The notes under the pieces are model-generated. The model saw only the letters and a list, made by a program, of their open reading frames with translations, was not told the DNA's origin and searched no databases. From the NCBI RefSeq assembly GCF_003334355.1, contig NZ_QOWP01000018.1: a stretch of 64,000 nt of DNA; one strand, 5' to 3'. Position 1 is the stretch's first letter. Every line of letters begins with the position of its first letter. Below are positions 54,454 to 54,553 of the stretch, in pieces. This DNA comes from Escherichia coli. Lineage in GTDB: Bacteria > Pseudomonadota > Gammaproteobacteria > Enterobacterales > Enterobacteriaceae. The translations under genes were made by a program, and so were the position numbers.

Positions 54454-54553
54454 TGCCGGATGCGGCGTGAACGCCTTATCCGGCCTACAAAAGCATGAAA
54501 ATTCAATATATTGCAGGAGCTGCGTAGGCCTGATAAGCGTAGCGCATCAGGCA
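54454..54553. repeat. BIME/RIP-type unit (REP, IHF-like core, REP) between asnB and umpH
   Basis: REP tgccggatgcggcgtgaacgccttatccggcctac, then tcaatatattgca (fits the IHF WATCAANNNNTTR pattern), then REP gcgtaggcctgataagcgtagcgcatcaggca. Confidence 0.7.

Follow-up and report, generated by a model that had tools for sequence, protein, structure and literature searches.

BIME-1 elements are defined in the literature as a pair of REPs of the y and z1 types joined by a long conserved linker, L, that often carries an IHF site (PMC3333891; PMC2817692; PMC3184786). Citing earlier work, these papers relate specific binding of IHF to this linker. DNA gyrase has a higher in vitro affinity for BIME-2 than for BIME-1 (PMC1475751), while in vivo, sites of gyrase cleavage show enrichment in BIME-2 and a slight depletion at IHF sites (PMC6379681). 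The TnpA-REP (RAYT) protein cleaves y, z1, and z2 REPs in vitro (PMC3333891). In a 2026 preprint, a REP cluster was described as a partly Rho-dependent attenuator and a stabilizer of the upstream mRNA, with REP effects that depend on context and REP positions that vary among strains (doi 10.64898/2026.03.23.713779).

We analyzed a 64,000-nucleotide stretch of Escherichia coli chromosome (here called the window), which is ∼99% identical to positions 685 to 709 kb of MG1655 yet is not K-12. The original prediction was that an IHF-like core plus a REP recurs at three intergenic sites: downstream of lnt, between asnB and umpH, and downstream of glnS. Our analysis strongly suggests (probability of roughly 0.88) that the three sites are copies of BIME-1 (also RIP or RIB), a ∼150-bp noncoding mosaic repeat of Escherichia and close relatives that is best pictured as semi-selfish. 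The identification was therefore correct, and it concerns an element that has been described since the early 1990s. The genes next to the three copies are as follows.

42591-44468, plus strand: rhomboid-family gene, 625 aa
44595-46133, minus strand: lnt, stop codon at 44595-44597
52543-54288, minus strand: asnB as the listed open reading frame, with the gene end at 52543
54604-55356, minus strand: umpH/nagD
61123-62787, plus strand: glnS

Other REPs in the window do not belong to BIME-1: a degenerate pair after ubiF (51540-51634), a REP between nagE and the nagE terminator (60930-60963), and a single REP at glnS (listed below). No REP-like sites were seen in positions 1 to 44 kb, no RAYT gene lies within the window, and the RefSeq MG1655 record lists no curated REP or RIP features for the stretch that matches the window. 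The tRNA cluster downstream of ubiF (51682-52163) has five genes in the window (Gln, Met, Gln, Leu, Met) and seven in MG1655 (glnX-glnV-metU-glnW-glnU-leuW-metT). Rfam matches at gathering level that are unrelated to the repeat were sroC, the rnk leader, a cspA-type thermoregulator, and STnc70 (41070-41232, 6336-6444, 19431-19873, and 1030-1123).

The order of parts in a BIME-1 copy is A flank, Y REP, L linker of 34 to 35 nt, Z1 REP, and B flank; the REPs are oriented so that CTAC of the one and GTAG of the other face the linker. The copy between umpH/nagD and asnB is complete and fits the consensus of 129 further copies throughout its ∼150 nt. The stretch originally flagged there, 54454-54553, lies within the element but covers only 100 nt of it.

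54428-54577, plus strand: complete BIME-1, with A, Y, L, Z1, and B in order
54428-54453, plus strand: A flank ATTGCTGACAAAGTGCGATTTGTTCA (family consensus ATTGTTGACAAAGTGCGCTTTGTTCA)
54454-54488, plus strand: Y-type REP ending in CTAC beside the linker; exact match to the 34-mer given below, and a hairpin in the RNA fold
54489-54523, plus strand: L linker, 35 nt (family consensus AAAATCGTGCAAATTCAATATATTGCAGAAACCAT)
54501-54513, plus strand: IHF-type core ATTCAATATATTG, matching the IHF consensus WATCAANNNNTTR with one mismatch
54524-54553, plus strand: Z1-type REP starting with GTAG beside the linker; exact match to the 30-mer given below
54554-54577, plus strand: B flank GTTTGGCGTTTGTCATCAGAGCCA (family consensus ATTTTGCGTTTGTCATCAGTCTCA)
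54577-54598, minus strand: 3′ hairpin of nagD/umpH, its T-tract displaced by the BIME-1 block

The Y REP of this copy is also covered by a sub-threshold Rfam match to naRNA4 (REP325). Downstream of glnS, the same order of parts is found on the minus strand, although the A flank has a gap of 11 nt and the B flank diverges distally (the parts are given in plus-strand coordinates).

62854-62983, minus strand: BIME-1 downstream of glnS
62854-62865: B-like flank
62866-62895: Z1 REP
62896-62930: L linker
62931-62965: Y REP
∼62966-62983: A flank
62906-62918, minus strand: IHF-type core ACTCAATATATTG, matching WATCAANNNNTTR with one mismatch
62803-62834, plus strand: further single REP, not BIME-1, directly after the glnS stop codon
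62984-63008, plus strand: terminator-like hairpin with T-tract of glnS

The copy downstream of lnt is reduced.

44501-44603, plus strand: truncated BIME-1
44501-44520, plus strand: A remnant
44521-44527, plus strand: Y tail, ATCC-TAC
44528-44562, plus strand: L linker
44563-44592, plus strand: Z1 REP
44540-44552, plus strand: IHF-type core ATTCAACATATTG, matching WATCAANNNNTTR with one mismatch
44475-44495, minus strand: terminator-like hairpin with T-tract of the lnt transcript

In this copy ∼29 nt including the head of Y are missing, so that ATCC-TAC is all that is left of Y, and L and Z1 are intact. Past Z1, proximal B-like bases continue into lnt, whose stop codon is only two bases away from Z1, and this edge of the copy overlaps the last lnt codons; the predicted C terminus reads ...ARKR* in the window versus ...QRRK* in K-12, where the repeat abuts the gene. 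With little of its Y REP left, the lnt copy is a truncated member of BIME-1 rather than a REP/IHF/REP element, as all three had been called. That call correctly named the family and correctly described the umpH-asnB and glnS copies, each of which has Y, a 35-nt L, and Z1.

Comparison of the three copies bore out the predicted recurrence. The Z1-type 30-mer GTAGGCCTGATAAGCGTAGCGCATCAGGCA was exact in all of them (44563-44592 and 54524-54553, plus strand; 62866-62895, minus strand), with none expected from shuffled sequence. At a fixed distance from it in each copy stands the linker 14-mer TTCAATATATTGCA, with no mismatch at 54502-54515 and one mismatch each at 44541-44554 and 62904-62917 (minus strand). 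On the far side of the AT-rich stretch, the Y-type REP GCCGGATGCGGCGTGAACGCCTTATCCGGCCTAC was found at 54455-54488 and, on the minus strand, at 62931-62964. The 12-mer quoted in the original prediction, caatatattgca, reads caaCatattgca at lnt (C for T, one mismatch), and the spans given for the motif start or stop a few bases off the element boundaries. A search of the window for TTCAATATATTGCA with up to two mismatches returned five matches versus 0.58 expected; the remaining two are a reverse-strand self-match at 54502 and a site at 29755. We attribute the latter to chance rather than to a further copy, since it lies inside a long coding stretch with no REP nearby.

The three 35-nt linkers (44528-44562, 54489-54523, and 62896-62930) are identical to one another at 25 to 27 of 35 positions. 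This similarity is concentrated in positions 1 to 27, where 23 to 24 are common to any pair (85 to 89%), whereas the last eight share just one to four. These variable bases are those beside the GTAG of Z1 (54516-54523, 44555-44562, and 62896-62903). An ungapped repeat search extended the similarity to 81 nt at 83 to 85%, including ∼12 nt past Z1. Pairwise alignment of the copies thus showed similarity beyond the generic REP palindrome. We considered whether they are recent duplicates of each other and rejected this, because what they have in common is what the whole family shares as its consensus, whereas each has its own version of the last 8 nt of L. The identical Z1 units likewise represent the family consensus and imply no special kinship among the window copies.

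To place the copies in their family, we scanned one genome per species with a pattern made of the L core and the head of Z1, which returned at least 120 stretches; those listed came from E. albertii, E. whittamii, E. coli, other Escherichia, and Pseudocitrobacter. The 129 further copies with full flanks, from Escherichia and Pseudocitrobacter, aligned to a single ∼150-nt consensus that includes the outer flanks. Individual genomes carry more than one such unit. Among the Y...Z1 matches in the fetched loci (both strands counted), linker length was 34 to 35 nt in 265 of 271, and a search for copies elsewhere that violate the Y-L-Z1 order found none. Within the family alignment, the 8 to 10 nt of L beside the GTAG of Z1 vary greatly, with consensus frequencies of 0.4 to 0.7, in contrast to the conserved remainder of L and the conserved REPs. 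At this Z1-side end of L, far more uniformity is seen in Pseudocitrobacter (mostly GAAACCTT) than in Escherichia.

Two further observations concern the family outside the window. In contrast to the single copies of the published description, Escherichia sp. MOD1-EC7003 carries whole BIME-1-like units as tandem arrays: one locus (L117, 11475-12413) has a confirmed period of 182 nt and 5.2 copies, with two more continuing in L118, and unit spacings of ∼107 to 170 nt were found at L120, L121, L125, L126, L131, and L132. Short contigs attributed to distant bacteria also contain perfect BIME-1 copies, most likely through enterobacterial contamination or mis-binning; the assemblies are those of Desulfosporosinus sp. 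OT (262-nt contig), Methylobacterium frigidaeris (261-nt contig), and two MAGs, one of Bacteroides and one of Collinsella.

In the window, each locus has one BIME-1 unit, and all are intergenic. Every copy sits just 3′ of a stop codon with its Z1 end nearest the stop, the lnt copy between convergent genes and the others 3′ of umpH/nagD and glnS, and the predicted location after convergent or terminal genes therefore held. The family behaves similarly: among the 93 copies for which a crude ORF caller assigned a gene on both sides, the neighbors were convergent in 55 cases, tandem in 35, and divergent in 3, in a sample that is non-independent because it includes many orthologous or arrayed copies. 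In the tandem cases, Z1 was proximal to the upstream gene in 23 and Y in 12, a ratio too weak, given the same caller and the orthologous or arrayed copies, to accept an orientation preference relative to the upstream gene. The title of the 1993 paper by Boccard and Prentki places RIP/RIB at the 3′ ends of transcription units, with which the location of the window copies and the 93-copy context agree.

The IHF consensus WATCAANNNNTTR, allowing one mismatch, matched the window 54 times versus 54.8 expected. All three cores match at this level, which is accordingly a necessary but not a sufficient feature. Because matches occur at chance level, the scan has no discriminating power, and the role of IHF rests on the literature, from which the conserved part of L would, as DNA, serve as a specific IHF binding site. 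In 32 copies collected without use of the scan pattern, differences in the core were mainly in the NNNN center of the IHF consensus; in this small and non-independent sample, such a distribution is a weak, indirect hint from sequence towards IHF. The main text of an IHF ChIP study (PMC3333857) makes no mention of REP or RIP or of these genes.

We next compared the three loci across 5,426 complete E. coli genomes. Alleles with and without the element exist at all of them, with boundaries blurred by replacement and divergence. The umpH-asnB copy is present in 2,280 genomes (42%), K-12 included. In the empty allele, carried by O157:H7 and two other strains, 21 nt (ATGATGGGTAAAAATAAGAAA) stand in place of 161 nt in the window (54418-54578). 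Comparison of the two alleles revealed no target-site duplication or clean insertion boundary; rather, the 21 nt were replaced. The haplotypes that flank the element are ∼5 to 10% diverged, and since the neighboring intergenic DNA differs by several percent, the filled and empty alleles represent old haplotypes.

The two alleles also differ in the 3′ end of nagD. The empty allele has TCTTATTTTT after the nagD hairpin, which is there called terminator-like, whereas in the filled allele of the window the B flank comes after this hairpin and the terminator call is negative. As the T-tract is found only in the empty allele, with the B flank in its place in the window and K-12, the BIME-1 block displaced the T-tract of the nagD terminator. 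It is possible, if rather doubtful, that in the ∼42% of strains with the element (K-12 among them) the nag operon transcript would have its end at REP hairpins or be terminated through Rho, with the rest keeping a classical terminator. If true, this would be a natural, repeat-driven switch of termination mode that might alter the stability of nagBACD mRNA and read-through towards asnB.

The glnS copy is more frequent, at 2,456 of the 5,426 genomes (45%). Its alternative allele is ∼131 nt shorter and retains one REP with an A-like flank; the single REP at 62803-62834 is the counterpart of this sole REP in strains without BIME-1 at glnS. In the window, both the single REP and BIME-1 lie between the glnS stop codon (62787) and the terminator-like site. 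Insertion sequences were also seen near these spacers: strains VL40 and YPE10 have IS1 copies inserted in the spacers between nagD and asnB and downstream of glnS, and in EC571 an IS200C copy lies immediately past the T-tract of the glnS terminator (L011, ∼331-1044).

At lnt, the form with L and Z1 was detected in 788 of the 5,426 genomes (15%). Strain GB089 and Escherichia sp. MOD1-EC7003, in which the rhomboid gene is present, carry a short form with only the outermost Y and Z1 bases, and strain 142 has a degenerate Y and a 17-nt linker. Neither the rhomboid gene nor the element was found at this locus in K-12, O157, and others. In the window, ∼2.2 kb (42381-44601) with the gene for a rhomboid-family intramembrane protease, convergent with lnt, takes the place of ∼155 bp of MG1655, where IS5D adjoins the corresponding spot. 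Three different decayed forms among strains argue against strong selection for an intact structure at lnt, and this locus shows a repeat decaying in several ways rather than one maintained intact.

RNA folding of the transcribed strands gave z-scores of −3.8 to −4.6, much better than shuffled sequences, with predicted folds of either separate REP hairpins or one long Y:Z1 hairpin with L in its loop. The lnt copy, like the glnS copy, lies between a stop codon and a terminator-like site, so both would be transcribed as 3′ UTR. From the literature on REPs, such hairpins in a 3′ UTR may slow 3′-to-5′ decay of the upstream mRNA and may attenuate read-through. The likeliest overall picture would be that of a semi-selfish repeat with local, context-dependent effects, its presence at the 3′ ends of transcription units being tolerated.

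Other explanations were weighed against this picture. That the copies are selected cis-regulatory modules, for example for IHF-dependent control of asnB or as a replacement terminator or stabilizer for the nag operon, glnS, or lnt, seems to us unlikely. The element at umpH-asnB does lie ∼250 nt upstream of the asnB start codon and its insertion did remove the nagD T-tract, two copies are inside 3′ UTRs, and the context-dependent terminator and stabilizer effects in the preprint (doi 10.64898/2026.03.23.713779) point the same way; however, the same sequence is dispersed over many unrelated loci, each copy is polymorphic, and the one at lnt is decaying. Polymorphism also bears on the proposal that the units serve mainly to bind gyrase or act as topological barriers. 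Gyrase binding by REPs in vitro and a proposed role of BIMEs as domain barriers are cited in PMC6907758 and PMC3184786, but over half of E. coli genomes lack any given one of the three copies, which excludes an essential structural role for each. Moreover, the gyrase binding originally suggested for these units fits BIME-2 better, as the cited studies tie gyrase to that family rather than to BIME-1, both in vitro (PMC1475751) and for in vivo cleavage (PMC6379681), and we regard a mainly gyrase-related role as quite improbable.

We put very little weight on the linker being an independent small RNA gene that has REPs beside it by coincidence. Rfam model RF02751 (ES036/CssrF) matches 54489-54531 on the plus strand at 41.1 bits, above its gathering score of 37.6, and Northern blots in Shigella detected cssrF, which was described from the spacer of dacB and yhbZ (PMC3071730). 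The other two linkers score 28.9 and 24.8 bits, below the threshold, and the umpH-asnB match lies on the strand opposite to nag operon transcription, with no promoter-like site called for it. In addition, the proposed stem (UGCAA/UUGCA) has nonstandard pairs in all three aligned copies. The 43-nt model consists of the L linker plus the first bases of Z1 and can thus be expected to match BIME-1 copies in general. Finally, we give practically no credence to a resemblance made up of a generic REP palindrome and a chance AT-rich stretch, even though the IHF consensus by itself occurs at chance frequency and the near-match at 29755 lies in a coding region: 23 to 24 of the first 27 linker nucleotides are kept in all pairs at a fixed distance from both REPs, and the 35-nt linker recurs in more than 120 further copies. 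The alignment of the three sites, the linker comparison, and the family consensus together refute that reading and leave the three sites as copies of BIME-1.

As a discovery, the identification of these BIME-1 copies carries little weight, since those at umpH-asnB and glnS are also present in E. coli K-12 MG1655, at ∼699.40-699.55 kb (nagD-asnB) and ∼707.82-707.95 kb (glnS-chiP). What is mildly new is local: the element spans ∼150 nt in full and its flanks are conserved, all three copies are polymorphic among strains, one being a decayed member, and the nagD T-tract was lost. Because the loci vary among strains, they offer convenient natural pairs with and without the element for studying the effect of BIME-1 on neighboring transcripts, of which the nagD terminator is the clearest.

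In comparison with known systems, the umpH-asnB and glnS copies show no difference from BIME-1 as described by Gilson, Bachellier, Hofnung, and coworkers, from which the lnt copy departs in lacking the head of Y. The outer flanks are conserved in our family alignment and are not mentioned in the BIME-1 descriptions of the papers cited here. We take these flanks to be motifs "A" and "B" of the early BIME papers. RIP and RIB (Oppenheim et al. 1993; Boccard & Prentki 1993) denote this element too, as a unit of REP, IHF site, and REP that is defined by its specific binding of IHF. BIME-2 also has a Y REP and an extragenic location but differs in having Z2 rather than Z1, short S linkers without an IHF core, and tandem copies; the three loci have Z1, a 35-nt linker, and no tandem repeat. 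RF02751 ES036 (CssrF) stands for a fragment of a transcript that was annotated as a small RNA, and every base of its model aligns with L or with the first bases of Z1. Judged from sequence, it is most likely the repeat itself, catalogued as such a fragment, that it marks here, rather than a small RNA gene at umpH-asnB. The REPINs and RAYT-associated REP doublets of Pseudomonas and others resemble BIME-1 in having two inverted REPs, a spacer, and a possible long hairpin. However, they belong to a different REP sequence family, whereas E. coli BIME-1 has nonidentical arms, Y and Z1, and a linker reported to bind protein.
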